From IMG/VR virus record IMGVR_UViG_2918987250_000001, positions 53,523 to 117,522 of that record: 64,000 bases of DNA. One strand, 5' to 3'. Shown piece after piece: positions 1,924 to 62,560 of this stretch. Origin of the DNA: a virus (lineage: Duplodnaviria; Caudoviricetes). Below the pieces are notes generated by a model. The model saw only the letters and a program-made list of their open reading frames with translations. It was not told where the DNA came from and ran no database searches. The first letter of the stretch is position 1. Every line of letters begins with the position of its first letter. The position numbers were made by a program, and so were the translations under genes.

Positions 1924-2796
1924 CTAGTTCACGTCGCGTTCGGTCTGCCGAACGTCGCCGCTCTGGGTCTCGCGGATGTCATCGGACTGGGTGCGCCGGT
2001 AGGTGATCGGCGGCTCCATGGTCGCGCTCACGATGGCGAGGCTCGAGGCCGTGCCGGTGAGCTGCTTGCGGATGCGCTCGTCGCCGGTCATGAGGCCCTG
2101 GCCGCTCGTCGCGGCGACCAGGAGCTTCGCGACGGTGAGTGCCCCGGCCGGTGCGCTCAGAGCGTGCGCAGAGCCCGTGAGCTGCTTTTCGGTGAGCAGG
2201 GTCGCGAGCGTGTGCGCGGACCCGTCTGAGAGCGCTCCCAGCAGCTTCTCGGTGCGCATCGTCGCGACAGCAGCAGCATGCCCGGCAGCGCGCGTCACGA
2301 ACAGCTTCTCGATCAGCGGGTTCGCCGCGACCGATGCGTAGCCATGCACGGTCGGAGCGCCGAGGATCTTCTCGACGGTGAGACGCACGTCGGCCGACGG
2401 GATACCGCGGGCGGTCGCCGTCAGCTCCTTGGCGATGTGAATGGTTGCGGCGCCCTCGGCCTGGCCTGCCGCCCAAGTGCGCAGGTTCTTGCGCACGAGG
2501 AGCTGGCTCGCGACCGTGGACTTGCCCGTCATCACGCCGTCGAAGACGCGCGGGCTCATCTCGGCGTAGACGTGCGCGGAGCCGCGCGCCGTCTCGCCCT
2601 TGAGGATCTTCTCGACCCGCAGGCGCAGGTCGAAGCGAGGGGCGCCACCGGCGCGGCCCTCGAGCATGTCGAAGCGCTTCTCGACGAGAAGGCGCCCCCT
2701 CGCCTCGCAGTAGCCCAGGGCGGCGCCGGACAGCGCAAAGCGACTGCCGTTGAACCGGCGCGCCGCAATTCCCTGGAAGCTGGAGGCGAGCATCAT
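1924..2796 (-). CDS. Virion/tail-fibre-associated protein with repeated (V/T)EKxL-G motifs
   Basis: 290-aa ORF in the late operon next to the fibre gene. Confidence 0.6.
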   Translation of the reverse strand: MMLASSFQGIAARRFNGSRFALSGAALGYCEARGRLLVEKRFDMLEGRAGGAPRFDLRLRVEKILKGETARGSAHVYAEMSPRVFDGVMTGKSTVASQLLVRKNLRTWAAGQAEGAATIHIAKELTATARGIPSADVRLTVEKILGAPTVHGYASVAANPLIEKLFVTRAAGHAAAVATMRTEKLLGALSDGSAHTLATLLTEKQLTGSAHALSAPAGALTVAKLLVAATSGQGLMTGDERIRKQLTGTASSLAIVSATMEPPITYRRTQSDDIRETQSGDVRQTERDVN

Positions 2797-2808
2797 CAGG
2801 CCGAAGGC

Positions 2809-3204
2809 TTAGTCTTCGGTGATCGAGAGGGAGCCGACCGGGAAGCTCACCGGGTTCGTGGTGTTGATGGTCTGCGTGCCACCCGTGAGCGGGCTCGTGT
2901 AGAGCAGGTTGCCGCCGTCCTGCTGCGAGAACAGGGCGAAGTGGGTGACGTTGGTGCCGCCCTTCGAGTTGCCGAAGTCCACGATCGCCGAGTTGGAGAT
3001 CGTCTTGTTGGCGATGGCGCCGAAGGTGGCCTGCACGCGGCCGGCGTCGCGGATCGACTTCGTGACCTCAGTGCCGCCCGAGGCGTCGTCCAGCGGGTCG
3101 CCGTTCCAGAGGGCGACAAAGACGCCGCCGGGCGCGGCCGGGAAGGCGACGCCCTTGACGTAGTTCAGCAGTGCATTTTCGAGAAAGGCGCTCTTGCCGG
3201 CCAT
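2809..3204 (-). CDS. Small conserved tail-fibre-associated virion protein
   Basis: MAGKSAFLENALLNY...ALWNGDP...GGTEVT...THFALFSQQDGGNLLY, a pattern common in siphophage tail modules. Confidence 0.7.
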   Translation of the reverse strand: MAGKSAFLENALLNYVKGVAFPAAPGGVFVALWNGDPLDDASGGTEVTKSIRDAGRVQATFGAIANKTISNSAIVDFGNSKGGTNVTHFALFSQQDGGNLLYTSPLTGGTQTINTTNPVSFPVGSLSITED

Positions 3205-3271
3205 CGAGTTCTCCATTGAGCCGGCGATGGCCGGCGATGCGCAGGGTTGGACTGCGCACCAGGATACTCGC

Positions 3272-31795: not shown

Positions 31796-32065
31796 TCACA
31801 CCGATGATCCGGGGCGGAACTCCCGGTAAGCCTTCAGCGTCGGAGCGATGTAGAGCTTCCGCTTCTCTCCATACTTCCGGGAGAGGAAGCCGTGCTGCTC
31901 CAGATACCGGATGGAGAACTGAAGGGCCTGGGGCGTCACCGCCGGCCCGTAGCTCAGCGACGCCTTGAGGTCGTGAAAGGCGATGTCGCTGCCGGCGTCG
32001 GCCGCGGCGAGCACCAGACCCATGATCTCGTGCTGCTTGTCGGTGCCGGCGAAGGTCTCAGGCAT
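31796..32065 (-). CDS. Small winged-helix DNA-binding protein
   Basis: TPQALQFSIRYLEQHGFLSRK...YIAPTLKA wHTH pattern. Confidence 0.65.
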   Translation of the reverse strand: MPETFAGTDKQHEIMGLVLAAADAGSDIAFHDLKASLSYGPAVTPQALQFSIRYLEQHGFLSRKYGEKRKLYIAPTLKAYREFRPGSSV

Positions 32066-33014
32066 CGAACGGCACCTTCAGCTTCTCGGTCGGCTTCTGC
32101 CAGTCGAAGGCGGACAGCGGCAGGCGCTCCGGCATCTCCCGGCCGTGGTCGGGGTTCATCCAGACGCCGTAGAGCGGCGAGGCGAGCGTCATCTGGGCGA
32201 TCGACTTCAACACCTCGCGCGGGGTCATGGCAGCGACACGCTCCCGGCCCTTGCCGCGGTTGTTGCCGGTCTTCTCGAGCGCCGAGTGCCGGTAGTAGAA
32301 GGCGCGGGCGTCGGCGACGATCACCTCGGCCTGCTCCGCGGGCAGGCGCGCCAGCTCCTCGACCATCCCCTCGAAGTCGCCGGGGCTGCTCTCGAAGTGG
32401 CTGCGGAAGAACTTGAGCCCCTTGTCGAACCGGTTGGCGTTCATCGGCTTGACGAACCGGAACCCTGCCTTCTGGCCGAAGTGGTTGAACTTCGACATCG
32501 ACGACTGGATCTCCATGATCCGGTTGCCCTCGAGGCGCGAGACCAGGTTCATCATCCGGTAGCCGGCGCCGATCCCGCGGAACATCGTGTCGATCACGAA
32601 GCGGGAGATGACGCGGAAGTTCTGGTTGATGAAGAGGTAGCGGTCGGTGTTGGTGATGACCGTGTCGCCACCGCCCGGCTTGATCTTCGGGAACGCGACG
32701 TGGCGCTCCTTCAGCAGGCCCTTCGGGTTGGCCGTGACCAGGACGCCGATCGTCTGGCCGTCGAGCGTGAGCTTCCAGAAGCGCGGCCCGATGGAGAGGT
32801 TCTCGGCCTTGTAGTGCAGGTCGTGCAGGAGGTCCCAGTCGGCCTTGGTGCCCCGCTCCACGAACATCTGGTCGATCAGCGAAAACCGGGGCGCAGGGCT
32901 CTCGATGCGCTCGATCAGCGTCTCTGGTGCTTCGAACGCGCGGACGCGCTCACCGGGCAACGTCGCGAAGCCCAGCGCATCTCCGGCGTCGAAGTTGATC
33001 GTGTCGAGCGACAT
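32058..33014 (-). CDS. GNAT-fold (Mom-like) acyltransferase, putative DNA-modifying
   Basis: LHDLHY, ISRFVIDTMFRGIGAG (acyl-CoA motif A), SSMSKFNHFGQKAGF; ATG at 33014. Confidence 0.75.
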   Translation of the reverse strand: MSLDTINFDAGDALGFATLPGERVRAFEAPETLIERIESPAPRFSLIDQMFVERGTKADWDLLHDLHYKAENLSIGPRFWKLTLDGQTIGVLVTANPKGLLKERHVAFPKIKPGGGDTVITNTDRYLFINQNFRVISRFVIDTMFRGIGAGYRMMNLVSRLEGNRIMEIQSSMSKFNHFGQKAGFRFVKPMNANRFDKGLKFFRSHFESSPGDFEGMVEELARLPAEQAEVIVADARAFYYRHSALEKTGNNRGKGRERVAAMTPREVLKSIAQMTLASPLYGVWMNPDHGREMPERLPLSAFDWQKPTEKLKVPFDA

Positions 33015-33100
33015 CAGTGCGTTCCCGACGCTGCAAGGCCGATGGTGATGAGGAGAGCGAGCCCGGCGAGCCAGGCCCAGTCGAGGGCGCGAAGGTGCAT
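33014..33100 (-). CDS. 28-aa single-TM peptide (not in ORF track)
   Basis: MHLRALDWAWLAGLALLITIGLAASGTH with TGATG coupling at both ends. Confidence 0.6.
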   Translation of the reverse strand: MHLRALDWAWLAGLALLITIGLAASGTH

Positions 33101-33465
33101 CAGGCGTTCGGGTCCGGCCGGGTCCAGCGGGTGACGACCGGGCAGGACACGCCCTCGCGGCCGCGCAGCACGTCCCGGAGCTCCGGCGGCAGGTCATCCG
33201 CGCGCAGGTCCTCGAGGATCACCGTGCCGATGAGGAGCCCGCGCAGCATCGCCACCGCCGACGGCTTCATGGCGAGCTGCTCGAGCGAGGTCTCGACGAA
33301 GTGGGTGCCGGGGAGCTGCGCGGAGTAGGCCAGCCCCTTGCGACGCACCACGACCACGGAAACGGGCACCGGCACGGAGATCTTCTCGACCGGGATGCTG
33401 CCGACCGGGATATACGCCGCGGTGACGCTGCCGAAGTTGAGCCCGGAAAGGACGGAGTCGCTCAC
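33100..33465 (-). CDS. Hypothetical protein
   Basis: GTG start overlaps the upstream stop. Confidence 0.55.
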   Translation of the reverse strand: MSDSVLSGLNFGSVTAAYIPVGSIPVEKISVPVPVSVVVVRRKGLAYSAQLPGTHFVETSLEQLAMKPSAVAMLRGLLIGTVILEDLRADDLPPELRDVLRGREGVSCPVVTRWTRPDPNA

Positions 33466-33839
33466 GACACGACCTCCCAGTCCTGGGCCAGCAGGTCGGA
33501 CTGCGAGCACAGCCACGGCACCCGGTTCTTGCAGGCCGTGAACATGAAGACGTAGGGCAGGCTCATCTTCGAGTGGGCGTCCGGCACCTGGAGCTCGAGA
33601 TACATCCCCTTGCCGTTCCAGCCGGCGCGGGCGACACGCAGGCCGGCCCGGAGCGCGGCGACAGCCTGCCCGATGTTGAGCGCGCCGTTCTTCTCGACCG
33701 CGGCGTCCTCGAAGGAGACCTTCGTCACCTTGCGCACGAGCCCGAGCTCCTCGACGGGCGGCCGAGCGTTGCGCGGGGCGAACGTGATGCTGCCGATCGT
33801 CAGATCGCCGCCGGCCTTGACCTTCATGTCCACGTTCAT
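33462..33839 (-). CDS. DUF2829 / Tad2-like anti-defence nucleotide-signal sponge
   Basis: IGQAVAALRAGLRVARAGWNGKGMYL...PWLCSQSDLLAQDW. Confidence 0.85.
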   Translation of the reverse strand: MNVDMKVKAGGDLTIGSITFAPRNARPPVEELGLVRKVTKVSFEDAAVEKNGALNIGQAVAALRAGLRVARAGWNGKGMYLELQVPDAHSKMSLPYVFMFTACKNRVPWLCSQSDLLAQDWEVVS

Positions 33840-34492
33840 GCTGCTGCCTTCTCGACTTCGACGCGCTCGCGGAAGCGCTTGGTGAGGGTGAGGGAGGGAC
33901 CGAGCTCTTCCTTGAGGTCGGTGTGGGTGGTCGCGACCATCAGGGTCTTGCCGGAGCGGCGCGCGATCTTCTGGACGTTGGAGGCGACGACCTTCGCGGT
34001 GACGCGGTCGAGGACGGCGCCGAACTCGTCGGCAATCCAGACATCGGCGCCGGATTCCAGCACCTTCGCGAGCTTGAGGCGGTAGCGCTGGCCGTCGGAG
34101 AGCTCGGACGGCTTGCGGATGTAGATCCAGGCGTCGGAGATGCCGGCGAGCGCGAGGAGGTAGGTCGCCTCCTGGGTGTTCTTGCCGACCTGCTCGATCA
34201 CCGGGCGCTCGTCGAGGCTGACGCCGTCGATGTCGGCGACGACCTTGCCCTCGGCGCGCATCATCGCCGTGAGCTCACGCAGCAGCAGCGACTTGCCCGA
34301 GCCCGACTGGCCCTGGATGTAGACGACATCGCCGGCCCGGATCTCGACCTGGAGCCCGTCGTAGATGACGAACTCCTTGTCGGAGAGGCCCAGGCCGAAG
34401 CTCTCGGCGATCTCGAGCACGCGCGGGGTGCGCTCCACCGACGAGGTGAAGCTCTTGGAGATCGTGTAGGTGTTCTGGGTGATGATGGTCAT
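33836..34492 (-). CDS. Stand-alone ABC-type ATPase
   Basis: GQSGSGKS, LSDGQRYR, WIADEF, ATTH; no permease gene nearby. Confidence 0.92.
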   Translation of the reverse strand: MTIITQNTYTISKSFTSSVERTPRVLEIAESFGLGLSDKEFVIYDGLQVEIRAGDVVYIQGQSGSGKSLLLRELTAMMRAEGKVVADIDGVSLDERPVIEQVGKNTQEATYLLALAGISDAWIYIRKPSELSDGQRYRLKLAKVLESGADVWIADEFGAVLDRVTAKVVASNVQKIARRSGKTLMVATTHTDLKEELGPSLTLTKRFRERVEVEKAAA

Positions 34493-34962
34493 TCGTCGTC
34501 CGGCTGCTCGGCGTCGAGGTCGATGAAGACCGGCTGGTCAGACGCCTCGAAGGCGGCCGCGGTCGGGCTGTCGATGCGCGAGAGCACCTCGACCTTGCCC
34601 TCGCAGAGGTCGGTGAGGCTCCGCTCCAGCACCTTCAGGGAGCCGAGCATCCGGGCGGCGCCGTCGGCGACCGAGAGCCCGATGGGGAGCGAGACGTGCG
34701 CCTCGAACACCTTGTCGGCCTCGTTCCAGACGATCGCCGCGATGCCGCGGCAGAGACCCTGCTCGAAATCCTCGGCCAGGCCGGTGGCGACCTTCAGCGC
34801 CTCCTCGTCCACGGCGTCGGGCGCGACCTCTTCGATCTCGTCCTCGGCCGGCGGCGGCTCGTAGGGCGCGCGCGTGAAGATGTGGAACACCTTCGGGGCG
34901 TCCGGGTCGGCCGGCACCTCGGTGAAATACTTCTTGCGGATCTCGTCCAGGGCGTCGCTCAT
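34489..34962 (-). CDS. Hypothetical acidic protein
   Basis: Coupled ORF. Confidence 0.6.
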   Translation of the reverse strand: MSDALDEIRKKYFTEVPADPDAPKVFHIFTRAPYEPPPAEDEIEEVAPDAVDEEALKVATGLAEDFEQGLCRGIAAIVWNEADKVFEAHVSLPIGLSVADGAARMLGSLKVLERSLTDLCEGKVEVLSRIDSPTAAAFEASDQPVFIDLDAEQPDDE

Positions 34963-34965
34963 GGG

Positions 34966-34983
34966 CGTGTCAGTCCTGACTTA
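34966..34983. promoter_or_regulatory. Degenerate operator
   Basis: CGTGTCAGTCCTGACTTA. Confidence 0.6.
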
Positions 34984-34985
34984 CC

Positions 34986-35663
34986 TCAGATGCCGAACTC
35001 GGTGAGGAACGCCATGAAGGCTTCCGCACCCTTCTTGCCGGTCTCCGTCTGGATACGGCTCATGAAGGCCTTCACGCGCCGGCTGTCGGCGACCGTGACC
35101 TTGGAGAAGCCGAAGGCCTCGGCGACGCGCTGGGGCGCCTCGTCCACGGCGATGGCCGCGGCCTCGTTCTCTTCCTTCTGCTCCTCGACCGCCTCGGCGA
35201 TGTCGTCCACGAAGGCGTCATCGAGCGTGGCCGCGAGGTCGTCGGTCATGAAGGAGAGCTCCTTCTCGTCGAACCCGAGCCAGTCCATCTCGAGCCCGGC
35301 GTCGGAGAGCGCCGTGAGGCCCTCGCGCACGAGGTCGGTGTCGTAGATCTGGTGCTGGACCCGGTTGTCCGAGAGGCGCAGCGCGTCGGCCTCGGCATCG
35401 GTGATGCCGTGCATGACGACGACCGGCACGGTCTTGCGCCCGAGCTCGATCGCAGCCAGGCGGCGCCCGTGGCCGGCGATGATCTCGCCATCCTCGCGCA
35501 CGACGATCGGCTGCGTCCAGCGGCCGGAGCCCTTGATCGCGGCAGCGAGCTTCTTCGTGCTGTCCTTGGAGTGCTTCTTCGCGTTCTTGGCGTAGGGCAC
35601 CAGGCGCTCAACCGGCCAGTGCTCGACGACCATCTCACCGGGCGGGGTCTTAGGCGTCGTCAC
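34986..35663 (-). CDS. ParB/Srx N-terminal domain protein
   Basis: LVPYAKNAKKH...QPIVV...IIAGHGRRLAA...LSDN. Confidence 0.9.
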   Translation of the reverse strand: MTTPKTPPGEMVVEHWPVERLVPYAKNAKKHSKDSTKKLAAAIKGSGRWTQPIVVREDGEIIAGHGRRLAAIELGRKTVPVVVMHGITDAEADALRLSDNRVQHQIYDTDLVREGLTALSDAGLEMDWLGFDEKELSFMTDDLAATLDDAFVDDIAEAVEEQKEENEAAAIAVDEAPQRVAEAFGFSKVTVADSRRVKAFMSRIQTETGKKGAEAFMAFLTEFGI

Positions 35664-35838
35664 GGGACCATTCCTTCAGCATGTCGTAGAGATCGGCATC
35701 GCTCGGTTCGGTCTCATCGACCGTGGGCTCGAAGTTCTCTCCGGCCCGGCACCCGAGGCATTCCCGCTTGATGCGGGTCGGGTCGAAGTGCTCGCACTGG
35801 GAGCACTCATCGAAGCGAGGCTCGATCCTGATCTTCAC
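35650..35838 (-). CDS. Small Cys-rich protein
   Basis: CxxC...CxxC, coupled ORF. Confidence 0.6.
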   Translation of the reverse strand: MKIRIEPRFDECSQCEHFDPTRIKRECLGCRAGENFEPTVDETEPSDADLYDMLKEWSRDDA

Positions 35839-36551
35839 AGGGGCGCTCCGAAGCCGTCGTCCTCGCTGGGCTCGTCGTCTTCGACGGCCGGCGCAGCAGT
35901 CGCGCCCGAGAGCAGGAGGAAGCAGAGAGCGTCGCCGGCATTCATGAGGGCGGTGGCGCCCTCGAAACCCTGGCGCTTGGCCGTCCGGGTGATGAGGTCC
36001 GTCAGGCGCTCCGCATCGGCGAGCGGCACCTGGAAGCGCATCATCGCGTGGGTCTTGGGAGCGGCCGCCGCGGGAGCGACTTCTTCCGGCTCGCTCGTTT
36101 CGGACTCGGTCTCGAGCAAATCGAGATCATCGAGCGCTATAGAAGACGACGAGAAGATCGACGTGATCTCCTCATCAGAGAAAGGCATCGTGTCCTGGAT
36201 TTCCTCCCCGTTCACCAGCGTCTTGAGAAGAGCAGCCAGCTCGCTCGCGTCGTCCTCGCCGTAGCGGGCGTTGTCGATGAGCCCGATCTTCTTGGCCTGA
36301 TCGTCTGCGATCGGCCCGACGTTGATGACGGGGATCTCCTTCAGTCCCAGATCCAGGCAGACCTTCCAGCGGTGCTCGCCCCCGATAATCTCGAGGTCGC
36401 CGCCGGCCTCCCGCACCACGACGGGCTTGAACAGTCCGTGCTGACGAACGGACGCGGTGAGACGCGCCTCGTTGTCGGGGCTCATGTGGTTGGTGTTCCA
36501 CGGATTCGGCCGCAGGGCCGTCGGCGGAAGGGTCAGGGCCTTGGGATACAT
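35835..36551 (-). CDS. ParB/Srx N-terminal domain protein
   Basis: LRPNPWNTN...KPVVVRE...IIGGEHRW; likely start MYPK at 36551. Confidence 0.9.
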   Translation of the reverse strand: MYPKALTLPPTALRPNPWNTNHMSPDNEARLTASVRQHGLFKPVVVREAGGDLEIIGGEHRWKVCLDLGLKEIPVINVGPIADDQAKKIGLIDNARYGEDDASELAALLKTLVNGEEIQDTMPFSDEEITSIFSSSSIALDDLDLLETESETSEPEEVAPAAAAPKTHAMMRFQVPLADAERLTDLITRTAKRQGFEGATALMNAGDALCFLLLSGATAAPAVEDDEPSEDDGFGAPL

Positions 36552-36563
36552 GGGAGGACGTGG

Positions 36564-36590
36564 TAAGTCAGCGCTGACTGACTTGTCAAT
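36564..36590 (-). promoter_or_regulatory. Operator and TTGACA promoter at the head of the late operon
   Basis: TTGACA-agtcagtcagcgctgact-TACCAC, divergent from the helicase. Confidence 0.7.
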
Positions 36591-36615
36591 GCCTATCGGA
36601 GCGAAATGAGCGCCT

Positions 36616-38307
36616 ATGACTGAACTGGTCCGCATGGGTGTGGGCGTCGTGAACGCCCGCATCGAGAGCCCCTCGAAGGCCGTGAAGGCTCTCGTCCACA
36701 AGACCCTCTCCTACGTCGTCGAGGGCGCCGAGTTCTCCGGGGCCGGCAACGGGCAGTGGGACGGGCGCTCCTCCTTCTTCTCCAACCTGAAGCACACCTT
36801 CCCGGCCGGCTTCGCGCACATGGTCCACGCCGAGCTCAAGCGGGCCGGCCACAAGGTCCACATCGTCAAGCACCCGCTGCCGGAGCCGCTCGGGCCTGAG
36901 AACCCGATCGTGGATGAGTTCGGCAACGACGACCCGCGCTACGACTACCAGATGCGGACGGTGAACCAGCTCATCCGTCACGGCCGCGGCATCGCCCAGG
37001 TCGCCACCGGCGGCGGCAAGTCGAAGATCGCCAAGCTCGCGGTCGCCCGCATCCGGCGCCCGACCCTGTTCCTGACGACCCGCGGCGTGCTCATGCACCA
37101 GATGGCCGACGGCTTCCGCGACGCCGGCTTCACCGTCGGGCTGATCGGCGACGGCGAGTGGTCCCCGGTGCGCGGCGTCAACTGCGCGATGGTGCAGACG
37201 CTCGTGGCCCGGCTCGAGGAGACCGATGTCGCCAAGGAGCTCTTGAAGGCTGTCGAGCGCCGGGCCGCGGCCGAGGAGCGGGCCAAGAATGCGCTCAAGG
37301 CGAAGATGAAGCGCGAGAAGGCCAAGAACGCCGAGATCTACCGGGCGCTCGACGCGCTGGGCGCCCAGCAGGAGGCGGCTCGGCCGTCCGACGAGCAGAT
37401 GGCGAAGGAGGCTCAGAGCCGCGCCGTGACCCAGATGGCGACCCGCGCCCGGACCATCAAGTTCCTCGAGCTGATCGAGCTGGTGATCGGCGAGGAGGCG
37501 CACGAGGTCGGCGGCACCAGCTACAACGAGATCATGCGCCACTGCACCAAGGCGCGCTACCGCCTGGCGCTCACCGCGACCCCGTTCATGCGCGCCGACG
37601 CGGCCGACAACATGCGCCTGATGGGTGCCTTCGGCCCGATCCTGATCCAGGTCACGGAGAAGGAGCTGATCGACAAGGGCATCCTGGCGAAGCCCTTCTT
37701 CCGCTTCGTCGAGACGCGGGACACCAAGAAGCTGTTCAAGACGACCGACTTCCAGCGCGCCTACAAGGCCGGCTACGTCGAGAACGAGGTCATGCACGCC
37801 GAGATCATCCGGGAGGCCAAGATCGCGGCCTCGCTCGGGCAGCCGGTGATGACGCTGATCCAGCGCACCGCGCACGGCGAGATCCTCGCGACGAAGATGG
37901 CCGCGGCCGGGCTGCGGGTCGAGTTCCTGAAGGGCGAGGACAACCAGAAGGCCCGCAAGCGCGCGCTCGCCCAGCTCAAGGCCGGCGCGATCGACGTGCT
38001 GATCGGGACGACCATCCTCGATGTCGGCGTGGACGTGCCGGCCGTCGGGATCGTGCAGCTCGCCGGCGGCGGCAAGGCCGAGGTCGCGCTGCGGCAGCGG
38101 ATCGGCCGCGGGCTTCGCGCCAAGAAGGGCGGCCCGAACATCTGCTTCGTGTCCGACTACTCGGCCCACCCCAACGCGCACCTCGCCGGCCACGCGCGGG
38201 AGCGCCGCTCGATCATCGAGAGCACGCCCGGTTTCGTCGAGGGAATCCTCAAGCCCGGCAGCCAGCACCCCTGGCACATGCTTTCGGCGTCAAAGCTCGC
38301 AGCCTGA
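36616..38307 (+). CDS. SF2 (UvsW/ResIII-like) helicase
   Basis: ATGGGKS, EEAH, LTATP, ILDVGVDVP, QRIGRGLR. Confidence 0.93.
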   Translation: MTELVRMGVGVVNARIESPSKAVKALVHKTLSYVVEGAEFSGAGNGQWDGRSSFFSNLKHTFPAGFAHMVHAELKRAGHKVHIVKHPLPEPLGPENPIVDEFGNDDPRYDYQMRTVNQLIRHGRGIAQVATGGGKSKIAKLAVARIRRPTLFLTTRGVLMHQMADGFRDAGFTVGLIGDGEWSPVRGVNCAMVQTLVARLEETDVAKELLKAVERRAAAEERAKNALKAKMKREKAKNAEIYRALDALGAQQEAARPSDEQMAKEAQSRAVTQMATRARTIKFLELIELVIGEEAHEVGGTSYNEIMRHCTKARYRLALTATPFMRADAADNMRLMGAFGPILIQVTEKELIDKGILAKPFFRFVETRDTKKLFKTTDFQRAYKAGYVENEVMHAEIIREAKIAASLGQPVMTLIQRTAHGEILATKMAAAGLRVEFLKGEDNQKARKRALAQLKAGAIDVLIGTTILDVGVDVPAVGIVQLAGGGKAEVALRQRIGRGLRAKKGGPNICFVSDYSAHPNAHLAGHARERRSIIESTPGFVEGILKPGSQHPWHMLSASKLAA

Positions 38308-41285: not shown

Positions 41286-41455
41286 GCGACCGAGAGCCGA
41301 GCGACTGAGCGCCAAGGGTCCGATCACCGGGAGTTCCGGGGCCTATCCCAAGGGTCCGGGAATATGTGCTGCCGAGACCCGAGGCATAGCCCTCGAGCAG
41401 ACGCGATTTATCTAAGACTTCGTAACTTTACGCTAACTTTTCCGCAAAACACTAT

Positions 41456-41483
41456 GCGAGCGCGCTAATGTTAACGCGCTCGC
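41456..41483 (-). terminator. Hairpin after the first GG-free gene
   Basis: GCGAGCGCG-loop-CGCGCTCGC, built without GG/CC. Confidence 0.55.
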
Positions 41484-41491
41484 TTCTAATG

Positions 41492-42187
41492 TTATGCGAA
41501 GTCTTCAAACATTAGATCATTGCACACTGCGAGAAACTGCTTTAACAGTGCGAACTCTTCGAAGCGATAATAGACGATATGTGCATTTGCGGTGCGTTGC
41601 GCTTCGCTTACATCATGCGTCTTATTCGCTAGATGCTTGACGATAGCGACGTGATAATCTTGCGCATCTTTGGTGCAAGCGAGCACTTCGACATAAACGT
41701 CTTGCATGATAAGCGCAGTGTAGCGCTCTGACATAGCGTCAACGTTATCGAGTTGCGTCGCGTCAGTGCGCATGTCAGAGAAAGCGTTAAACGCTTCTTC
41801 GTTAAAGCTGCAATCTATGCGATATTGCGCTTCGACGTTGCTAAGCGCGCGCTCTAGCGTGTGATGCACCGACGAAAGCAACACATTGATGCTTGACGCT
41901 TCGCTGTCGTTTTCGACGTAGCACGTCTCACAGATAAACGCGATGTGTTCAGCGTCGCTGAAAGTCACCGCAAAATAGTTGCTGTCGTTTTCGTTAGAGA
42001 ACGTCGCGACAGAGCACAAGTCGTTATAGTCTTGAAGCGACAGCATCACAGGTGTTTTTGTGTCGTTGAGCTTGTTATGAATGAAGCGCGCGAAGTCTAG
42101 CGCGACAACATCACGTTGCGCTTTCAGCGGTGCATCAGCGATCTCGAAAGAGACAGCATTCATCTCATGAATATCAGCGAGCGTCAT
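41492..42187 (-). CDS. Acidic early protein lacking Gly and Trp
   Basis: 231 aa with its own promoter and leader. Confidence 0.8.
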   Translation of the reverse strand: MTLADIHEMNAVSFEIADAPLKAQRDVVALDFARFIHNKLNDTKTPVMLSLQDYNDLCSVATFSNENDSNYFAVTFSDAEHIAFICETCYVENDSEASSINVLLSSVHHTLERALSNVEAQYRIDCSFNEEAFNAFSDMRTDATQLDNVDAMSERYTALIMQDVYVEVLACTKDAQDYHVAIVKHLANKTHDVSEAQRTANAHIVYYRFEEFALLKQFLAVCNDLMFEDFA

Positions 42188-42208
42188 AGCGTGTGCTTTC
42201 TGTGGTGC

Positions 42209-42267
42209 GTTGTTGACTAGAGAGTTTTACTGTCGTGCTTGTGCGGTGTCAAGTCAGCGCTGACTTA
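42209..42267 (-). promoter_or_regulatory. Early promoter with abutting operator
   Basis: Operator 42250-67, then TTGACA-17-TAAAAC-6-GTCAACAAC. Confidence 0.75.
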
Positions 42268-42681
42268 TTTCTGCGCTTCAAGCACTTTCTTCGCGCGATC
42301 AATGCGCATCACATGCGTGTGACGCTCGCGCTTGAAGCGCTCGACGTTTGCAAGATGCGCTTTATGCGTCACGTCTAGTTCAGCGGAAATCTCAGCTAGA
42401 CGCTTTTGCGATGCGTCAAGCATCGCTTGCGCGCGCTCGACTGTAAGCGCATTCTTGCGCTTGATATTGTTCGCTTCGTTTTGTTCGCGTGTCTGGTAGC
42501 GCGCGAGCTGTATTTCAGCTTTGCGCAGCATATCGACAAGCTCTTTTTGCGGTAGCGTCATCAGCTCAGCGGTGCGAGCGTTCAGCGTCAACGCGCTTGT
42601 CGCGCTCGCATTCGCTTTGCGACATTGCTCGATCATCGCTTGTTTGCGATGCGCTTTCGATGCGTTGCAGCGCTCAGTCAT
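42265..42681 (-). CDS. Coiled-coil early protein lacking Gly and Trp
   Basis: 138 aa; 33-nt leader/start duplicated with the downstream gene. Confidence 0.75.
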   Translation of the reverse strand: MTERCNASKAHRKQAMIEQCRKANASATSALTLNARTAELMTLPQKELVDMLRKAEIQLARYQTREQNEANNIKRKNALTVERAQAMLDASQKRLAEISAELDVTHKAHLANVERFKRERHTHVMRIDRAKKVLEAQK

Positions 42682-42800
42682 AGCGTTCGCTTTCTGTGGT
42701 GCGTTATTGCGCTCAGAGCGTCACACAGCGCGATGCGTGCGCGTGTCGCTTCGTCGGTGCGCAGAGACGCGCGAAGCGTCTCTGCGGTCGAATGTGAGCG

Positions 42801-43421
42801 CTAGAGCGCGACGCTCAGAGCTTTCGCGAGACGCTTCGTCGTCGGTGCGTCTTTGTTGAGCGTGTAAGCAACTTCGTTCTTGTCGTCGCGCGTCTCTTTG
42901 AGCACGTCGAACATTTGCAGAGCGTTGATGCTAGAGCTTGATTGCGTGTCTGCGGTGCTCGCTGCGATCGAACGCGCATAGCGCACGATATGCGCAGACT
43001 TGTGCGCGTCGCACCGCAAATCAGAGCAGAGCGACGCTTGCGCGTCAGCGTGCGTCATCGACAGCTTTTCTTTGGTCAGCTTCAGCGCAGTGAGAAACAC
43101 ACAGCGCGTGTAATTGTTGAGCGTGTCAGCTTGCGCAGCGCTTCGCGCAATGTTTGCGACTTTCTGCGCAGCGTAGACGTTGAAGCGCTTGTTCTTACGC
43201 TCATGTCTGTTGATGAAGTCAGCGTTGACGTTTGCGGTGTGCATCACGCTAACGACAGCTTCGTGCGAGAAATCTTTCGCGAGATTGCTGAGCGTCTTTT
43301 GAATGTTGTCGTTGTCGGTGTTCTGCGCTTTCTCGTAAGCAGCGCGTGCGCTGATCGAAGTCTGAAGCGCGACGCTGTAGTTATTGAGCGCGTCGATCTG
43401 CTGCGCGTTGAGCTTCGTCAT
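42801..43421 (-). CDS. Early protein lacking Gly and Trp; paralog of 45667-46593
   Basis: Shares NIQKTL, ANV..FINR, R(F/Y)NVYA..KVA and TA.TQ.SS...AL with the paralog. Confidence 0.85.
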   Translation of the reverse strand: MTKLNAQQIDALNNYSVALQTSISARAAYEKAQNTDNDNIQKTLSNLAKDFSHEAVVSVMHTANVNADFINRHERKNKRFNVYAAQKVANIARSAAQADTLNNYTRCVFLTALKLTKEKLSMTHADAQASLCSDLRCDAHKSAHIVRYARSIAASTADTQSSSSINALQMFDVLKETRDDKNEVAYTLNKDAPTTKRLAKALSVAL

Positions 43422-44075
43422 AACTGTGTCTCTCTCTCGTTTGTGGTGTGTTTGTCGTGTCGTTGTTGACGAGAGTTAGAATAGCGATCTGCGAGAGAGG
43501 CACAAGCGTCAAATGATAGAAAAACCGAAAAAAGTCAGTTCGCGCTGATTTTTTCCGAAAAACGCATTTTCTCGCGTTTTCGGTCAAAAAGTCAGTTGAC
43601 GCTGATCTGCGTGCGTGTATACTCAAGACATCAGAGAGAGACAGAGAGCTAGACAGATGAAACGAAGTTGACCGCAGAGCACCGCAGAAGAAAATCAGAA
43701 AAAGCGACGCGCTCGACTAGACAACAAGCGAGCAAGCGTGTAGCTTGACCATAGAGCAGACGACTCGACAGCGACGCACGACCCCAGACTGGGGCCGGGT
43801 GCGGGCGCGGCTGGCTCGGCGCCGCCCGCCCATGGGGCAGCCATGGGAAGCCGTGGCTCAGGCCGTTCCGAATTTTCCCGACAGCCGTTCCTAATTTCCG
43901 CGCCCCAGATTTTCGCACCGGTCCCATGGCATCCCGAGGCGCTCCACGGCGACCGGACCCATGGCGCCCCACGCGACACCCATGGGAGAGCCGGAGATGG
44001 TCCATGGCGCCCCATGCAGCTCCACGGGTCTCCCATGGCGTCCCATACTCTCCCATGGGGGAATGCACGCACGCG

Positions 44076-44112: not shown

Positions 44113-44409
44113 CTACTCGGCGAGCAGGGCTTGCTGGCGCATCAGCTTCGCGTGACGCTGCTGCGAGCGGTTCATGCGGCGATCGAGGCGCGACTTGGCG
44201 TAGAGCATCTTCTGGCGATGCGCGCGCAGCGCTGCGGGGCAGGTCTCGTCGGTGGTGATGAGCGAGAGCTCGTGCTTGGCGCGACGCATGGCGACTTGCA
44301 GCTCGTTCGAGTGGGCTCGCTGGGCGCGCACGGTCTCGTCGTTGACGACTTCGAGGTAATCGGCGCACTGGGCGAAGCGAAGGGCGATCTGCTTGATGAA
44401 CTTCGTCAT
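44113..44409 (-). CDS. Basic early protein lacking Gly and Trp
   Basis: 98 aa with own promoter and terminator; no GG on the coding strand. Confidence 0.75.
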   Translation of the reverse strand: MTKFIKQIALRFAQCADYLEVVNDETVRAQRAHSNELQVAMRRAKHELSLITTDETCPAALRAHRQKMLYAKSRLDRRMNRSQQRHAKLMRQQALLAE

Positions 44410-44449
44410 GGTCGGCACTTGCTCTCTTGTCTAGCAGCGGTGTCGCTGC

Positions 44450-44492: not shown

Positions 44493-44695
44493 GCGGAGCG
44501 TTATGGCAATACTTGCACGGCACTGGGGCTGTATGGGCGTCCGGGAGCGGATGTGCGGCTGTGGGGTTGCTCGAGGCCGAGAGGCAGTGGACCGCGTCGA
44601 GGCCTAGCGGATCGAGGTCCTCCCATGGCCGGTAGGCCTACAGGCCTGGCCTAGAGGCCTGCATCCATGGCCTGCCATGGGGAGGCTTGGTCACG

Positions 44696-44729: not shown

Positions 44730-45344
44730 TTAGGCAGCAGCGGTGCGGTAGTCTTGCGGAATCGTCTCGTGGACGACGAGCGCGTTCGCGTCGCTCTCGG
44801 TCACGAGGATCTGCGACAGACCCCAGGTCGTGCTCTCGAGGGAGATGTAGGTGACGGGCTCGTTCACAGCGGGGTCGAAGTCGCTGTTGACGCGCACGGC
44901 GGTCGTCGGGTCTGCGAGGAACGCATTGGCGATGCGATCGACTTCACCGGAGAGCTGGGCGCGCAAGCTGGGCGCATACTGGGGATCGTTCTTGTAGATG
45001 GGGTCGCTCTCGGCGTGCATCTTCTCTTCGCAGTCGAAGACGATCGTCATGGACTCGCGGAGCTGCGCGACAGCTTCTTCGACGGTCTCGAACGCGAGGA
45101 TCGTCGTGTTGTCAGGACCGCAGTCGAGATAGGCGAACAGCGTCTTGGACGCGCTCGCAGCGATCAGCGCATGGGTGCGCTCGTTGGTCTCGTAGATGCA
45201 CTCGTCGTCGCTCAGGTCTTCGTGGGGCGACGTGTTGCAGGTCACGCTCGGGCACGCATTCTCGCGCTCTGTGAGCGTCACGCTGATGTCGAGGTAGGTG
45301 AAGGTCTCGGCGTTGGTGATGGTGGTGTTCTTGGTGATCGTCAT
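44730..45344 (-). CDS. Acidic early protein (only 3 Gly, all GGT)
   Basis: 204 aa with own promoter and terminator. Confidence 0.8.
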   Translation of the reverse strand: MTITKNTTITNAETFTYLDISVTLTERENACPSVTCNTSPHEDLSDDECIYETNERTHALIAASASKTLFAYLDCGPDNTTILAFETVEEAVAQLRESMTIVFDCEEKMHAESDPIYKNDPQYAPSLRAQLSGEVDRIANAFLADPTTAVRVNSDFDPAVNEPVTYISLESTTWGLSQILVTESDANALVVHETIPQDYRTAAA

Positions 45345-45366
45345 GTCGCTCTCTCTGGTGCAGCTC

Positions 45367-45409
45367 GTTGCTGACAATCTCGTTATAGCGATGCTCTCTT
45401 GCTTTGTGC
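45367..45409 (-). promoter_or_regulatory. Early promoter, GCACAA class
   Basis: GCACAA-16-TATAAC-6-GTCAGCAAC. Confidence 0.75.
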
Positions 45410-45630
45410 GCGGCGAGGTATGGGCGCTCTAGGATCGCTCAGGAGCGCTGGGACCGGTCTGGGAGCGGGGAACGCCGCCCCATGGGGCTCCTCGGGGCTC
45501 CACGGCCGCCCACGGCGATCCATGGACGCCTCCCATGGGGAGCCACGGGCGGCCCACGGGCTCCCATGGGTCTCGTGCGCTGGGGCGCCCCAGCCGTTCC
45601 TATTTTTCCCATGGGCGGATTCGATCACGA

Positions 45631-45666: not shown

Positions 45667-46593
45667 TCAGGCGGCGCGGGCGAAGAGCACTTCCTCGAGA
45701 CGCTGCACGATGGGGCTGTCCGTCAGCGTGAAGGTGGGGTTGCGGCTCGATCCCTCGCGCTTGACGATCCCGAGGGTCTCGAGGGCCTGCATGGTGGAGG
45801 ATGCCTGGGTCGGCGCGGTGCCGGCGCTCACGGTGTGCCGGACCAGGTGCTTGCGGATCGCGAGGTCGATGTGGTGCTTGTCGGAGGCGCACGCCTTGGC
45901 GACCTCACCGGTGAAGGGCAGCCCTGCCTTTCGCATCTGGAAGAGCGAGACCATGCAGGCCCGGTTGATCGCGTTGGAGACGACCCCGTCCGCCAGCGCC
46001 TTCACAGCGTCCGCGACCTTGTCGATGGCGTAGACGTTGTAGCGGCTGCCGTCGTGGAGCGTGCGGTTGATGAAGGACGGATCCACGTTCGCAGCGAGCA
46101 TCACGCGGCTCGTGTCCTTCCACATGAGCTGCTTGCGGACCTTGTTGAGGGTCTTCTGGATGTTGTGGCCCGCGCCCTTCTTCGCCAGCTCGAAGCTCTC
46201 ACGGGCGTTGATCGAGGCGGTGATGGAGAGCGTCATGCTCTGGACCGCAGCGTCATCGAAGGCACGCATCGCCTCGGCGAAGGTCTTGGGCTCTTCAGCG
46301 GTGTCGGGCTCGTCGCTCACGGCCGGCTCCTCGTGGACCTCCTCGGCCTGCTCTTGGAGGAGATCGGCCTCGGCCGAGAGGACCTGCGCCTCGGTGTCGT
46401 CGAGATCGCTCATGGAGAGCGAGGCGAGGGCGGCGTCCAGCTCGTCGGTGACGGCGAAGGTCTGGGCGAGAGAGGCGGCGCGGTCCTCGTAGCGCATGTG
46501 GTCGGTGAAGTCGGAGACGTGCTGGGCGAACGAACCCTCGAGCACGACAGCGGCGACCGGGGCGAGCTTCTTGGAAACAGACTTGCGAGCCAT
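45667..46593 (-). CDS. Early protein with acidic N-extension and C-terminal domain paralogous to 42801-43421 (possible wHTH)
   Basis: MARKSVSKK start; normal genome codon usage. Confidence 0.85.
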   Translation of the reverse strand: MARKSVSKKLAPVAAVVLEGSFAQHVSDFTDHMRYEDRAASLAQTFAVTDELDAALASLSMSDLDDTEAQVLSAEADLLQEQAEEVHEEPAVSDEPDTAEEPKTFAEAMRAFDDAAVQSMTLSITASINARESFELAKKGAGHNIQKTLNKVRKQLMWKDTSRVMLAANVDPSFINRTLHDGSRYNVYAIDKVADAVKALADGVVSNAINRACMVSLFQMRKAGLPFTGEVAKACASDKHHIDLAIRKHLVRHTVSAGTAPTQASSTMQALETLGIVKREGSSRNPTFTLTDSPIVQRLEEVLFARAA

Positions 46594-46797
46594 TTGTTTG
46601 TCGATCCTTATCTGATGAAGCACTGCGCTTCGTTTCGACAAGTATCGTTATGACGACTCCAATACCCGGTTGCACTTGGCACGTTATGGGGATTTGCGAT
46701 TACTTATGGGAGCCGGAGCCCTCGGCAGCCCATGGCGTTCCATGGGGAGGCGCGGATCGTGAGGGGCCGGGAATAGTCGTGCCCTAGCTCCAAAACG

Positions 46798-46856
46798 CCA
46801 TCGGCCTGTTCTTAGATATATACCTTTAGAGAAGTAGATACATAACAGGCCGATGG
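46798..46856. repeat. AT-rich core (35 nt) flanked by 12-bp inverted repeat, copy 3
   Basis: CCATCGGCCTGT-[AT-rich]-ACAGGCCGATGG-ACTTGG. Confidence 0.9.
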
Positions 46857-47619
46857 ACTTGGGAATCCAACCCCGGCTCGGGAATCCATGGGTCTCGGTG
46901 AGGGAGAGATGGGTCCGGCTCTGAGTGAGCGGCACCGGTCCATGGAGACCCGAGGGCTCCCATGGCTTGCGAGGCTCCGGCACCCGCGGCCGTTCCTAAA
47001 TTCGGGAAGGCTTGACCGGGACCGGACCGGGTCTCTGACATTCGAGGGGCGCCAATCCCTCGCACTCACCGGTCCGGTCGCAGCGTCAACAACGCCAGAG
47101 CACCACAGAGAGACAGGGTGCAGGAGCGCATCGGCGAACGCGCTCAACTGACGCTGTGATCTATGACGACCCCGCGCGAATTTTTCAAATGGCGTCGCAA
47201 GGCGTGAAAACGGGCTCGTGCGTGGAGATTGGGTGCGGCCGGCCTCTCGCGTGTTTCCCAGGCTCTCGATCTCTCTAGGCACTCTCTGCGCATTCTCTGT
47301 GAGGCACCTCTCTATGGGCTCACACAGGCACACGGGCTCTCTCTAGGGGCTGCCTCTCTCACACACCTGTCCCCGTATGCGCTCTATGCGTCGGAGCTGC
47401 TCTCTAGGGGTCGTGTGTGCTCTTCTCTCTCTGTGACGCGCTCTCTGGTGCGTGCTCTCGCTCTCTATGCGGGCGTGCTCTCTGGTGCGCGACGTTGCTC
47501 TGTGAGCGCTCTCTCTAGCGTCGTGCGTGTCGTTGCTCGTTCTCGTGCGTGCTGATGCTCAGCGGTCGATTTTGGTGAGGGTGGTCGGTTTGTCCAGAAA
47601 TGCGCAAAACGGGTTTCTG

Positions 47620-47737
47620 ACCGGACAAATGGGGGACATCCAGGGGACATCTGGGGGACGTTTTGGGGACAAGTGCCCGATGTTCGTATTGGACGCTCGG
47701 GGGACGTTTGAGGGACAGCTTGTCCCCTGGTTGTCCG
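47620..47737. repeat. GGGGAC-type repeats at 11-bp period (iteron-like)
   Basis: GGAC at 47623/34/45/56/67 and 47691/702/713; inverted GTCC at 47722/33. Confidence 0.75.
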
Positions 47738-47786
47738 GTGGCCTGCAGGTGGTGGACGGCCTCTCTTGGCCGGGACCTGCCTCGAC

Positions 47787-47999
47787 CTAGCTGGACTGTT
47801 GGCGTGCGAGCTCCACGGCTCTGGCGAGGATGCGCTCCTCGTTCTCTAGGCCGGCGATGATCTTGGGGATGGCGTAGGGGCTGCGTGCTCTCTGGCGCGG
47901 CTTCTCCAGAGAGAGAGTCGTGAGGGCGAGCCGCAGCGAGTGGTCGATCATGCCCGGTGAGCCCGTGGACATCATCTCTCGGAGGCGCTGAGGCGTCAT
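47787..47999 (-). CDS. Hypothetical protein
   Basis: ORF following 48003-48353. Confidence 0.45.
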   Translation of the reverse strand: MTPQRLREMMSTGSPGMIDHSLRLALTTLSLEKPRQRARSPYAIPKIIAGLENEERILARAVELARQQSS

Positions 48000-53269: not shown

Positions 53270-53670
53270 CAGTGGCCTCCCTTCAGCACTTCGTCGCGGA
53301 AGCTGTCCTGGGTGAGCGCATCCTCGGCGCGCAGCGCGTGGATCATGCCGTCGGCGATCCAGACCTTCGTCGGGCACAGCTCGGGATCGAGCTGCTCGCC
53401 GGCGACGGTGAAGCGGATCCAGGCGTTGTCGCGCGGCTCCCAGCCGGCCTCAGCCGCGGCGATCTCGTCGTGGTGATCGTCGATCTCCTCGACCGCCTCG
53501 TTGAGCAGGCGGACGGACGGCGCGAGCTGGCCGAACTTGTTCCAGTTCGAGAGCACCAGGCGCGCGGCCTCGTAGAGCTTGGTGTTGAGCAGCTCGAGCT
53601 CCTCGGCGCGCTTCTCGGCGCTCATGAGGAGGGTCGCCATCTTGTCGGTCGTGGTCTTTTCGGGTGTCAT
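53269..53670 (-). CDS. Hypothetical protein
   Basis: GGAG RBS directly after a palindrome copy. Confidence 0.6.
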   Translation of the reverse strand: MTPEKTTTDKMATLLMSAEKRAEELELLNTKLYEAARLVLSNWNKFGQLAPSVRLLNEAVEEIDDHHDEIAAAEAGWEPRDNAWIRFTVAGEQLDPELCPTKVWIADGMIHALRAEDALTQDSFRDEVLKGGH

Positions 53671-62533: not shown

Positions 62534-62560
62534 CGCCTTCCCCTTGTTGTTGCTCGTCGC

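Follow-up and report, generated by a model that had tools for sequence, protein, structure and literature searches.

Why would a phage-plasmid keep one short unit of its genome almost free of the dinucleotides GG and CC, to the point that the proteins encoded there have lost three amino acids? This question is raised by a 2.4-kb island in a Methylobacterium phage-plasmid whose source element is a single record of 117,522 bp (IMG/VR record IMGVR_UViG_2918987250_000001). The stretch analysed here, referred to as the window, comprises 64,000 nucleotides of that record (positions 53,523 to 117,522), and coordinates are those of the window unless indicated otherwise. The island extends from position 41394 to 43780, which corresponds to 94.9-97.3 kb of the 117.5-kb element.

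Extent and sharpness of the GG/CC purge

The island is 2387 nucleotides long and has a GC content of 51.7%, compared with 66% in the surrounding window. On its plus strand 21 GG and 9 CC are found, whereas base composition predicts about 181 and 140, respectively. With 30 GG and CC against an expectation of about 321, both strands are purged, and a composition-only model, the check named in a first-pass annotation of this DNA, fails. CG and GC are enriched in the island, with observed/expected ratios of 1.75 and 1.80. Nineteen of the 21 remaining GG belong to GGT and seven of the nine CC to ACC, and GGG, CCC and GCC are absent from the plus strand; the counts given in the first-pass annotation were thereby reproduced exactly. 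The edges of the island are sharp, with the nearest outside CC located at position 41391 before it and at position 43782 after it. Per 200 nucleotides the island contains 1-5 GG/CC compared with 33.6 ± 7.4 in the replicon background. When the whole 117,522-bp replicon was scanned, the island was the sole stretch of its kind.

Three open reading frames (ORFs) are encoded on the minus strand of the island. Their products of 206, 138 and 231 amino acids contain neither Gly nor Trp and only one or two Pro each, as already noted in the earlier annotation and confirmed from the ORFs. In a codon redraw test the three proteins were kept fixed, and codons were drawn 2000 times from the element's own usage. 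In the gene for the 206-amino-acid protein one GG and five CC are present where 23.8 and 57.2 are expected; the respective values are 0 versus 22.7 and 4 versus 36.3 for the 138-amino-acid protein, and 2 versus 26.7 and 4 versus 52.8 for the 231-amino-acid protein. None of the 2000 redraws came near the observed numbers for any of the three genes, and the control, a paralog of 324 amino acids encoded nearby, fits the expectation. GCC is not used for any of the 85 Ala residues encoded in the island. Direct reading of the sequence also bore out that the ribosome sites (CAGAAAG, GAGAGAG) and the terminator hairpin are free of GG; together with the spacers, these non-coding parts share the purge. 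As fixed-protein redraws never approach the observed GG/CC numbers and non-coding parts are purged too, selection acts on the nucleic acid itself. The purge exceeds any effect of amino-acid composition, and selection was strong enough to remove Gly, Pro and Trp. The proposal that selection at the DNA level had purged an amino acid is thus supported by the redraws.

Four other causes were considered and rejected. A translation-level cause involving tRNA-Gly, tRNA-Pro or tRNA-Trp is incompatible with a lack of GG that extends to every codon phase and to non-coding DNA. Foreign origin combined with an odd composition is contradicted by the paralog encoded next to the island, by leader motifs in common with the rest of the genome and by islands that are syntenic in relatives. 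The island had previously been regarded as native to the element, and this view holds: the 206-amino-acid protein is a paralog of the product of the adjacent 324-amino-acid gene, leader and promoter motifs are shared genome-wide, and relatives keep the island at the same locus. A generic shield against restriction does not account for the purge either, given that GG/CC occurs in just 14 of the 64 palindromic hexamers and that GCGC and CGCG are enriched. Protection against ultraviolet light or oxidation was discarded because TT is abundant in the island. With a translational cause and foreign origin excluded, the remaining candidate is a reader of GG/CC on DNA or RNA.

The island is an autonomous cassette

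The conserved gene of the island (42801-43421, minus strand, as are the cargo genes and the upstream genes described below) encodes the 206-amino-acid protein, which is paralogous to the C-terminal 190 residues of the 324-amino-acid protein encoded 2.2 kb away (32% identity, E = 6e-27). That paralog (45667-46641) has a normal composition with ten Gly, nine Pro and one Trp, and its gene contains 56 GG and 99 CC, matching the expectation from codon usage; it serves as an internal control. The AlphaFold2 model of the 206-amino-acid protein (predicted local distance difference test score, pLDDT, 92) is helical with a winged helix at its end. Residues ~90-205 of the model align over 72-84 residues with BpsR, MarR-family proteins, RosR, MecI and H1 globular domains at root mean square deviations of 1.9-3.6 and Z scores of 7.2-8.2, which is a generic match of the MarR/ArsR/H1 type, as such Z scores are common among generic folds. 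In the family alignment 22 positions are invariant and 25 nearly so, and an invariant TQSSSS-N-AL stretch is situated in the putative recognition helix. Membership in MarR, HTH_5 or similar families was not detected at the sequence level (no Pfam family at E ≤ 0.1), the family profile did not match PDB sequences at E ≤ 1, and Foldseek gave no match in the PDB at E ≤ 0.001. From its predicted fold, the protein is probably a DNA-binding regulator.

The two other genes are regarded as cargo. The first (42265-42681) codes for the basic, lineage-specific protein of 138 amino acids (isoelectric point, pI, 10.1; no Gly, no Trp, one Pro). It was not found in any of the related loci compared, and its product gave a single sub-threshold Pfam match (KilAC/ANT, E = 0.04). 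The second (41492-42187) is an ORFan whose very acidic product of 231 amino acids has a pI of 4.5 and a net charge of -23. A word search of 5.8 billion proteins revealed no homolog of it, and an atlas search yielded no hit that could be used; weak partial matches of 31% were noted in the related loci L001 and L024, and a single-sequence fold prediction was not usable (pLDDT 44). In the close variants X2, X5 and X9, recovered from public runs, both cargo genes are replaced by other sequence, and the ends leading into the replacement cargo are also almost free of GG/CC. Other small ORFs, often encoding acidic proteins, occupy the same position in relatives. Two candidate paralogies with genes located upstream of the island, namely between the 231- and a 215-amino-acid protein and between the 138- and a 101-amino-acid protein, were tried and rejected. 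When six proteins of the region were compared with Pfam, PHROGs and PADLOC, nothing exceeded the threshold (in PHROGs unnamed families only, E ~0.003), and no homology to a known Aca or Acr family was detected in Pfam, PHROGs, PADLOC or PDB sequences.

The regulatory region of the cassette (43422-43780, minus strand) comprises the GG-free ribosome site GAGAGAGAG, the shared leader motif GTCAACAACG and the -10-like element GCTATTCTAAC, and a putative promoter is assigned to it on the basis of these motifs. Divergent promoter-like sites are located on the plus strand at 43596-43623 and 43668-43695. The plus strand of positions 43620-43780 contains no GG and three CC; the strand asymmetry flips there, downstream of the plus-strand promoter-like sites. 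The cassette ends with a GG/CC-free intrinsic terminator-like hairpin (41456-41483, minus strand), which consists of a 12-pair stem followed by a T-rich tail and lies 9 nucleotides past the stop codon of the 231-amino-acid gene. A 33-nucleotide leader (CAACAACGCACCACAGAAAGC, a short spacer and ATG) is duplicated in front of the two cargo genes (42183-42215 and 42677-42709). Its AGAAAG could pair with UCUUUC, which we take to be the tail of 16S rRNA, and so replace a GGAGG site. A search of Rfam returned one sub-threshold hit to a eukaryotic family, which was taken as chance.

The island is an autonomous cassette, since it possesses its own leader and terminator-like hairpin and since the purge persists where the unit is inverted relative to its neighbours, as is the case in the related locus L012 and in a Shinella plasmid. 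A conserved regulator combined with variable small cargo in one operon amounts to a layout of the acr-aca type.

A neighbouring tier is purged on one strand

Two genes just upstream of the island show a second, one-strand form of the ban. In the gene for the 101-amino-acid protein (44113-44418) only GG on the sense strand is banned (0 versus 12.3 expected), while sense CC occurs 30 times, compared with 31 expected. The gene for the 215-amino-acid, very acidic protein (pI 4.2; 44730-45377) contains 5 sense GG where codon redraws predict 28.7 (minimum of 17 in 2000 redraws), as opposed to 60 sense CC where 73 are expected. In both genes the ban on sense GG extends to all codon phases, and equivalent one-strand purges exist in the related loci L005 and L008. 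The leftovers within 13 islands follow the same order, with 6 sense GG versus 20 sense CC. GG on the sense strand, which is equal to CC on the template strand and to GG in RNA, is thus under the strictest ban.

A third one-strand-purged stretch was observed at 47379-47678 (minus strand). It has no clear ORF and carries three copies of a leader motif of the CACCAGAGAG type; it may represent a non-coding leader or RNA.

Conservation of the ban in relatives

The nearest named relatives of the element are two circular plasmids of about 117 kb each, pAMS5a of Methylobacterium sp. AMS5 and a plasmid of M. oryzae (NZ_CP090351.1). The purge is kept in at least 15 relatives, with flanking GC contents of 39-67%. 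Their islands contain 0-6 GG/CC (16 in L006) per 0.7-1.7 kb, where 85-233 are expected. One GG/CC each is present in the islands of pAMS5a (1679 nucleotides), L005 (1677 nucleotides) and L009 (790 nucleotides), two are present in L010 (1250 nucleotides; flanks with 39% GC), and none in L007 (931 nucleotides), L008 (847 nucleotides) and L012 (922 nucleotides). The L006 island is 1620 nucleotides long, and those of L019, L021-L024 and L026 contain 1-6 GG/CC in 690-1620 nucleotides. The mapped islands have sharp edges. Leader, coding sequence and terminator are always purged, and the purged stretch upstream varies from none to about 600 nucleotides.

At L010 (9904-11154) the neighbouring genes are different (radical SAM, DUF1643, HAD_PNKP), yet the island, the normal paralog and repeats of the CCCATGGG type are kept. 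As all this is retained at 39% GC, the unit travels across very different phage backbones and hosts. In the plasmid NZ_CP132310.1 of Shinella zoogloeoides (L028), about 700 nucleotides without GG/CC (2559-3250) cover an inverted gene for a 193-amino-acid protein. Its membership in the 206-amino-acid family is not detected by tblastn; a paralog of normal composition is encoded at L028 1-777.

Sixteen of the 30 GG/CC left in the island lie within CACC(G/A)(C/A)N(A/G)A in either orientation, a motif that occurs there at 6.7 per kb versus 0.4 per kb elsewhere (about 17-fold denser), and three of its copies are situated in translation-initiation leaders. The L006 island retains ACCGT as its sole leftover word, with 16 copies, 13 of them within CACCGT. 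Most relatives tolerate no GG/CC at all. The excluded motif had initially been described as GG[A/C/G], with GGT tolerated. This description has to be revised: every GG/CC is banned in most relatives, and what is left represents lineage-specific words, CACCGCA-like here and CACCGT in L006.

The 206-amino-acid family forms 41 clusters at 90% identity, and nearly all members are free of Gly, Pro and Trp. A profile search extended it to 397 clusters at 50% identity. In the top 150 of these, two or fewer Gly, Pro and Trp in sum were present in 48 of 82 short forms versus none of 68 long forms. In a FastTree phylogeny the short clade (n = 98) comprises 75 Gly/Pro/Trp-free, 18 low and 5 normal members, and it is separated with 95% local support from a sister clade of long paralogs, 81 of 87 of which are normal. 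Relaxed members are nested inside free ones, and the group to which the window belongs has the M. oryzae-type group as its sister. In the M. oryzae-type group GG/CC has been regained (20-25 per 200 nucleotides), and the protein has remained poor in Gly (2) and Pro (0-1). Gly-free homologs without dinucleotide bias had been named in the first-pass annotation as a finding that would speak against its interpretation. Such homologs formally exist in this group; because the clade is nested in purged clades, its state is a recent relaxation, the protein having kept its historical composition, and does not refute the interpretation. As judged from the phylogeny and the counts, the ban is ancestral, actively maintained and losable.

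A substitute banned word was looked for in the relaxed clade, and none was found. Comparison of the gene content of purged elements (the source element and pAMS5a) with that of the relaxed M. oryzae plasmid revealed many mosaic differences and no clear lost 'reader'. The relaxed plasmid has gained two methyltransferase-domain genes, which in this one case encode generic class-I S-adenosylmethionine (SAM) enzymes and not recognisable DNA methyltransferases. The same plasmid (L013) carries a TcmP/DUF5131 pair (PADLOC candidates PDC-M30 and PDC-M41) and a HEPN/Toprim-associated protein, at L013:7593-10309 and L013:18160-19449; pair and protein are absent from purged elements.

Genetic setting and repeat arrays

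The record of the source element is classed as linear and has no end repeats. Annotation of pAMS5a and the M. oryzae plasmid identifies a siphovirus-type phage-plasmid with RepC, ParA, terminase, HK97-type capsid, tape measure and tail genes, and with its own DnaE, DnaB-like helicase, ThyX and sigma-like factor. When a phage collection was searched, no match was obtained at either the DNA or the protein level.

Four arrays of YCCAYGG ((C/T)CCA(C/T)GG), with repeats spaced by ~10-11 bp, are located directly upstream of the island (43829-44059), upstream of the 101-amino-acid gene (44622-44681), upstream of the 215-amino-acid gene (45479-45615) and upstream of the 324-amino-acid paralog (46729-46965). 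They contain 25 of the 29 CCCATGG matches in the window, where 6.8 are expected by chance. Such arrays also flank the islands of relatives, including the 39%-GC locus L010. A protein encoded by the element probably binds these arrays, which would act as operators, centromere-like sites or injection-stop-like sites. Upstream of the 324-amino-acid gene, about 1.1 kb (46642-47790) lacks a convincing ORF, and a similar gap of about 1.3 kb is found in pAMS5a, L006, L007 and L008; the gap may represent an origin, encode a regulatory RNA or resemble an injection-stop region.

A promoter class of the form AACCCG-N10-GCTATAAC is distributed on the minus strand of the entire replicon, for example at genome positions 2124, 9236, 12452, 27751, 39010, 45825 and 49253 and at window position 62542. 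Each copy is followed by ~50-60 nucleotides free of GG/CC, up to the ribosome site of the first gene. This class is probably read by the element's own sigma-like factor.

The cassette may escape a host-encoded reader of GG/CC

The reading that we favour, at somewhat less than even confidence, is that the cassette is a stealth unit which escapes a hostile, host-encoded, nucleic-acid-targeting reader of GG/CC met at entry or establishment. The unit would be self-contained, with a promoter and leader, the gene of a conserved winged-helix regulator, swappable small cargo and a terminator. Selection on the nucleic acid itself would keep it free of GG/CC over very long times. A factor that needs GG/CC to act would be unable to act on it, and its products could be made, presumably early, at a time when the remainder of the incoming element is still open to attack. 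The logic would be that of the first-step-transfer DNA of phage T5, which must be without recognition sites of nuclease defences. In T5-like phages, resistance to restriction-modification (R-M), CRISPR and Ssp systems requires that the first-entering region carry none of the sites (PMC10644984), and a leading region without the motif allows Autographiviridae to evade a Type I R-M system (PMC12455610).

The layout of the cassette resembles that of anti-defence loci, with a conserved regulator gene ahead of small cargo genes that are unique to each lineage and often encode acidic proteins. A Tad2-like anti-Thoeris gene is present at another place in the element. As the ban was lost in one nested plasmid clade with neither a substitute word nor an obvious lost gene, the simplest reading is that the reader resides outside the element and is absent from those hosts.

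Several points weigh against a host-encoded reader. No defence system is known to us that recognises GG/CC as a bare step. The ban persists in elements whose hosts differ widely in base composition; this would require a very widespread reader and argues for a phage-encoded or universal one. A symmetric reader of double-stranded DNA does not explain the strand order, that is, the scarcity of sense GG relative to sense CC among the leftovers and the restriction of the second tier to sense GG. Only about 2% of the genome is protected, and for this to be of use the remainder would have to be shielded in time or space. Finally, Pfam, PHROGs and PADLOC revealed no anti-defence homology of the cargo.

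In a broader form, for which the arguments seem to us evenly balanced, the reader would be widespread, undescribed and oriented with respect to transcription, recognising the bare step as sense GG, template CC or GG in RNA. It could be an immune activity or a phage mark, and many unrelated phages would answer it with one small GG/CC-free early or regulatory cassette.

Alternative explanations

The island might instead be exempted from a DNA mark set by the element itself. A late, packaging-linked set of two ParB-like proteins, an ABC ATPase and a GNAT-like protein would mark the cytosine in CC on virion DNA; on the template strand the mark would block host RNA polymerase, so that units which have to be read from incoming, still-marked DNA would be without template CC (second tier) or without CC on both strands (island). 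The corresponding operon (32058-36701, minus strand) encodes ParB_N twice, a permease-less ABC ATPase, a Tad2-like protein and a 379-amino-acid GNAT-like protein and runs into the terminase genes, as assigned by Pfam and language-model features. The Tad2-like protein (anti-Thoeris sponge domain; 33462-33839, minus strand; Pfam E = 4e-22) is absent from the M. oryzae plasmid. Pfam recognises both ParB_N domains and ABC_tran in this module, and the 379-amino-acid protein lies near GNAT clusters in language-model features alone (score 0.92-0.95), with no Pfam GNAT hit. The module adjoins the island in nearly all relatives, with ATPases that are 66-83% identical. An element-encoded reader would explain conservation over hosts of 39-67% GC, a base mark that blocks transcription predicts the observed order with template CC as the strictest case, and GG/CC-free leaders follow the genome-wide promoter class. 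Moreover, ParB-like proteins of phages are known to activate enzymes that modify DNA bases after replication and recognise roughly a dinucleotide (PMC13229309).

The purge does not, however, co-vary with the presence of this module. The relaxed elements L002, L011 and L018 keep it equally intact (ABC ATPase 81-83% and GNAT-like protein 64-67% identical), again without a substitute banned word, and L010 has an island yet no module within 10 kb. Furthermore, the replicon contains neither a C5 or N4/N6 methyltransferase nor TGT, and the activity, target base and sequence context of the module are putative. A virion DNA modification was one of the reasons offered in the first-pass annotation; as a mark set by the element itself, we consider it unlikely.

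Evasion might alternatively take place at the level of RNA. GG-free transcripts would escape an endoribonuclease or RNA-modifying toxin that requires GG, and would stay translatable while others are destroyed; the enzyme could come from the host, as an abortive-infection effector, or from the element, as a means of host shutoff, and the island would be purged on both strands as it is transcribed both ways. Several features of the strand order are in line with this proposal: the tier-2 genes ban sense GG alone, in three codon phases and with normal sense CC; sense GG is under the stricter ban inside islands as well; and the asymmetry flips past the plus-strand promoter-like sites at 43596-43695. 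The ribosome sites have been rewritten without GG, and transcription of the convergent parA operon could enter the island on its left side. Precedents are RegB of T4, which cuts GGAG, and CmdT, which modifies GA in mRNA. Yet the near-total ban on sense CC calls for an extra assumption, namely an important antisense RNA over the whole unit, and several relatives are purged on both strands up to 400-600 nucleotides upstream of the gene. No GG-specific RNase or toxin is known to us, and none was identified in the analysis of this element. On balance RNA-level evasion appears quite improbable.

The arrays upstream of the units suggest a further explanation, in which an element protein, possibly the winged-helix paralogs, binds the 10-bp-phased YCCAYGG repeats and spreads along or wraps DNA via GG/CC steps. 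The regulator's own unit would be free of these steps and hence insulated from silencing or wrapping. GG/CC-rich, helically phased arrays are indeed found directly upstream of each unit and are conserved beside the islands in all relatives examined, and the conserved island protein has a predicted DNA-binding fold. A sequence-specific binder, however, does not require the loss of every GG/CC including those at synonymous sites, the one-strand tier and the sense/antisense order are left unexplained, and the arrays are retained in the relaxed clade. Such a cis-acting architecture is therefore rated as very improbable.

Finally, a by-product of targeted hypermutation by a CC-specific deaminase-like activity on a locally single-stranded region, of no benefit to the element, is scarcely credible: the drop in GC from 66% to 52% and the resemblance of the strand-specific tier to a single-strand mutational signature agree with it, but the ORFs are intact with their 22 invariant and 25 nearly invariant positions kept, the edges are sharp at the unit limits in either orientation, the L010 island has 37% GC near the 39% of its flanks, and former Gly positions show no replacement bias toward Ser, Asp, Glu or Arg.

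Comparison with known systems

A purge strict enough to erase three amino acids and persistent over deep divergence and hosts of 39-67% GC is a very strong selective signal. It predicts a reader with two-nucleotide specificity and a strand preference, be it a defence system or a phage DNA mark. The locus is especially informative because a normal paralog in situ and a one-strand tier occur together with tolerated words that differ between lineages and with a sister clade in which the ban was lost. As the GG/CC-free signature is easy to compute, uncultured phages could be screened with it for early or anti-defence cassettes. A literature search retrieved no description of GG/CC-free phage islands; several known systems share individual features with the one described here.

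DNA modification by 5mYOX T-dioxygenases involves ParB-like partners and a specificity of about two nucleotides (PMC13229309), and in the present element two ParB-like genes, an ABC ATPase and a GNAT-like gene are located beside the terminase. Unlike in the 5mYOX systems, there is no dioxygenase, and the presence of the ABC/GNAT-like module does not track the purge. In acr-aca loci, as in the cassette, one promoter serves a conserved gene for a small DNA-binding regulator and small cargo genes that vary and often encode acidic proteins (PMC9410906). In contrast to them, the cassette displays no sequence similarity to Aca/Acr families, and its regulator comes first in the operon. We know of no dinucleotide ban reported for acr loci.

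A locally confined absence of recognition words is also known from first-entering DNA. In T5 and BF23 the first-step-transfer region is, like the island, a small part of a siphovirus genome of about 120 kb that is without sites for nuclease defences, while the rest carries them (PMC10644984; bioRxiv 10.1101/866236). The same pattern of words absent locally and present elsewhere is seen here, with 30 versus about 321 GG/CC in the island and 33.6 per 200 nucleotides outside. The pre-early region of T5 also encodes small, mostly unknown takeover or anti-immunity genes and borders a long non-coding repeat region (PMC10644984; bioRxiv 10.1101/866236). What T5 avoids are particular 4-8-bp sites, and its proteins are not rewritten, whereas the island bans a whole dinucleotide with a strand order. 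Moreover, the T5 region forms a terminal repeat of 10 kb and is known to enter the cell first, whereas the island belongs to a temperate phage-plasmid. In the Autographiviridae example, a Murciavirus confronted with the Type I R-M system Mme2I, the motif needs to be absent only from the first-injected, variable region, which is rich in anti-defence genes (PMC12455610). There, one bipartite motif and one host system are concerned; here, it is a two-nucleotide step, deep divergence and many hosts.

Genome-wide depletion of restriction sites and protospacer-adjacent motifs in phages likewise reflects selection against short words read by immunity (PMC4246573). The published depletion is weak, statistical and genome-wide, whereas that in the island is near-absolute, confined to about 2% of the genome and removes three amino acids. 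Motif avoidance by phages has so far been known as a weak statistical effect or as missing restriction sites in first-entering DNA; in the cassette a whole dinucleotide is banned from a defined transcription unit.

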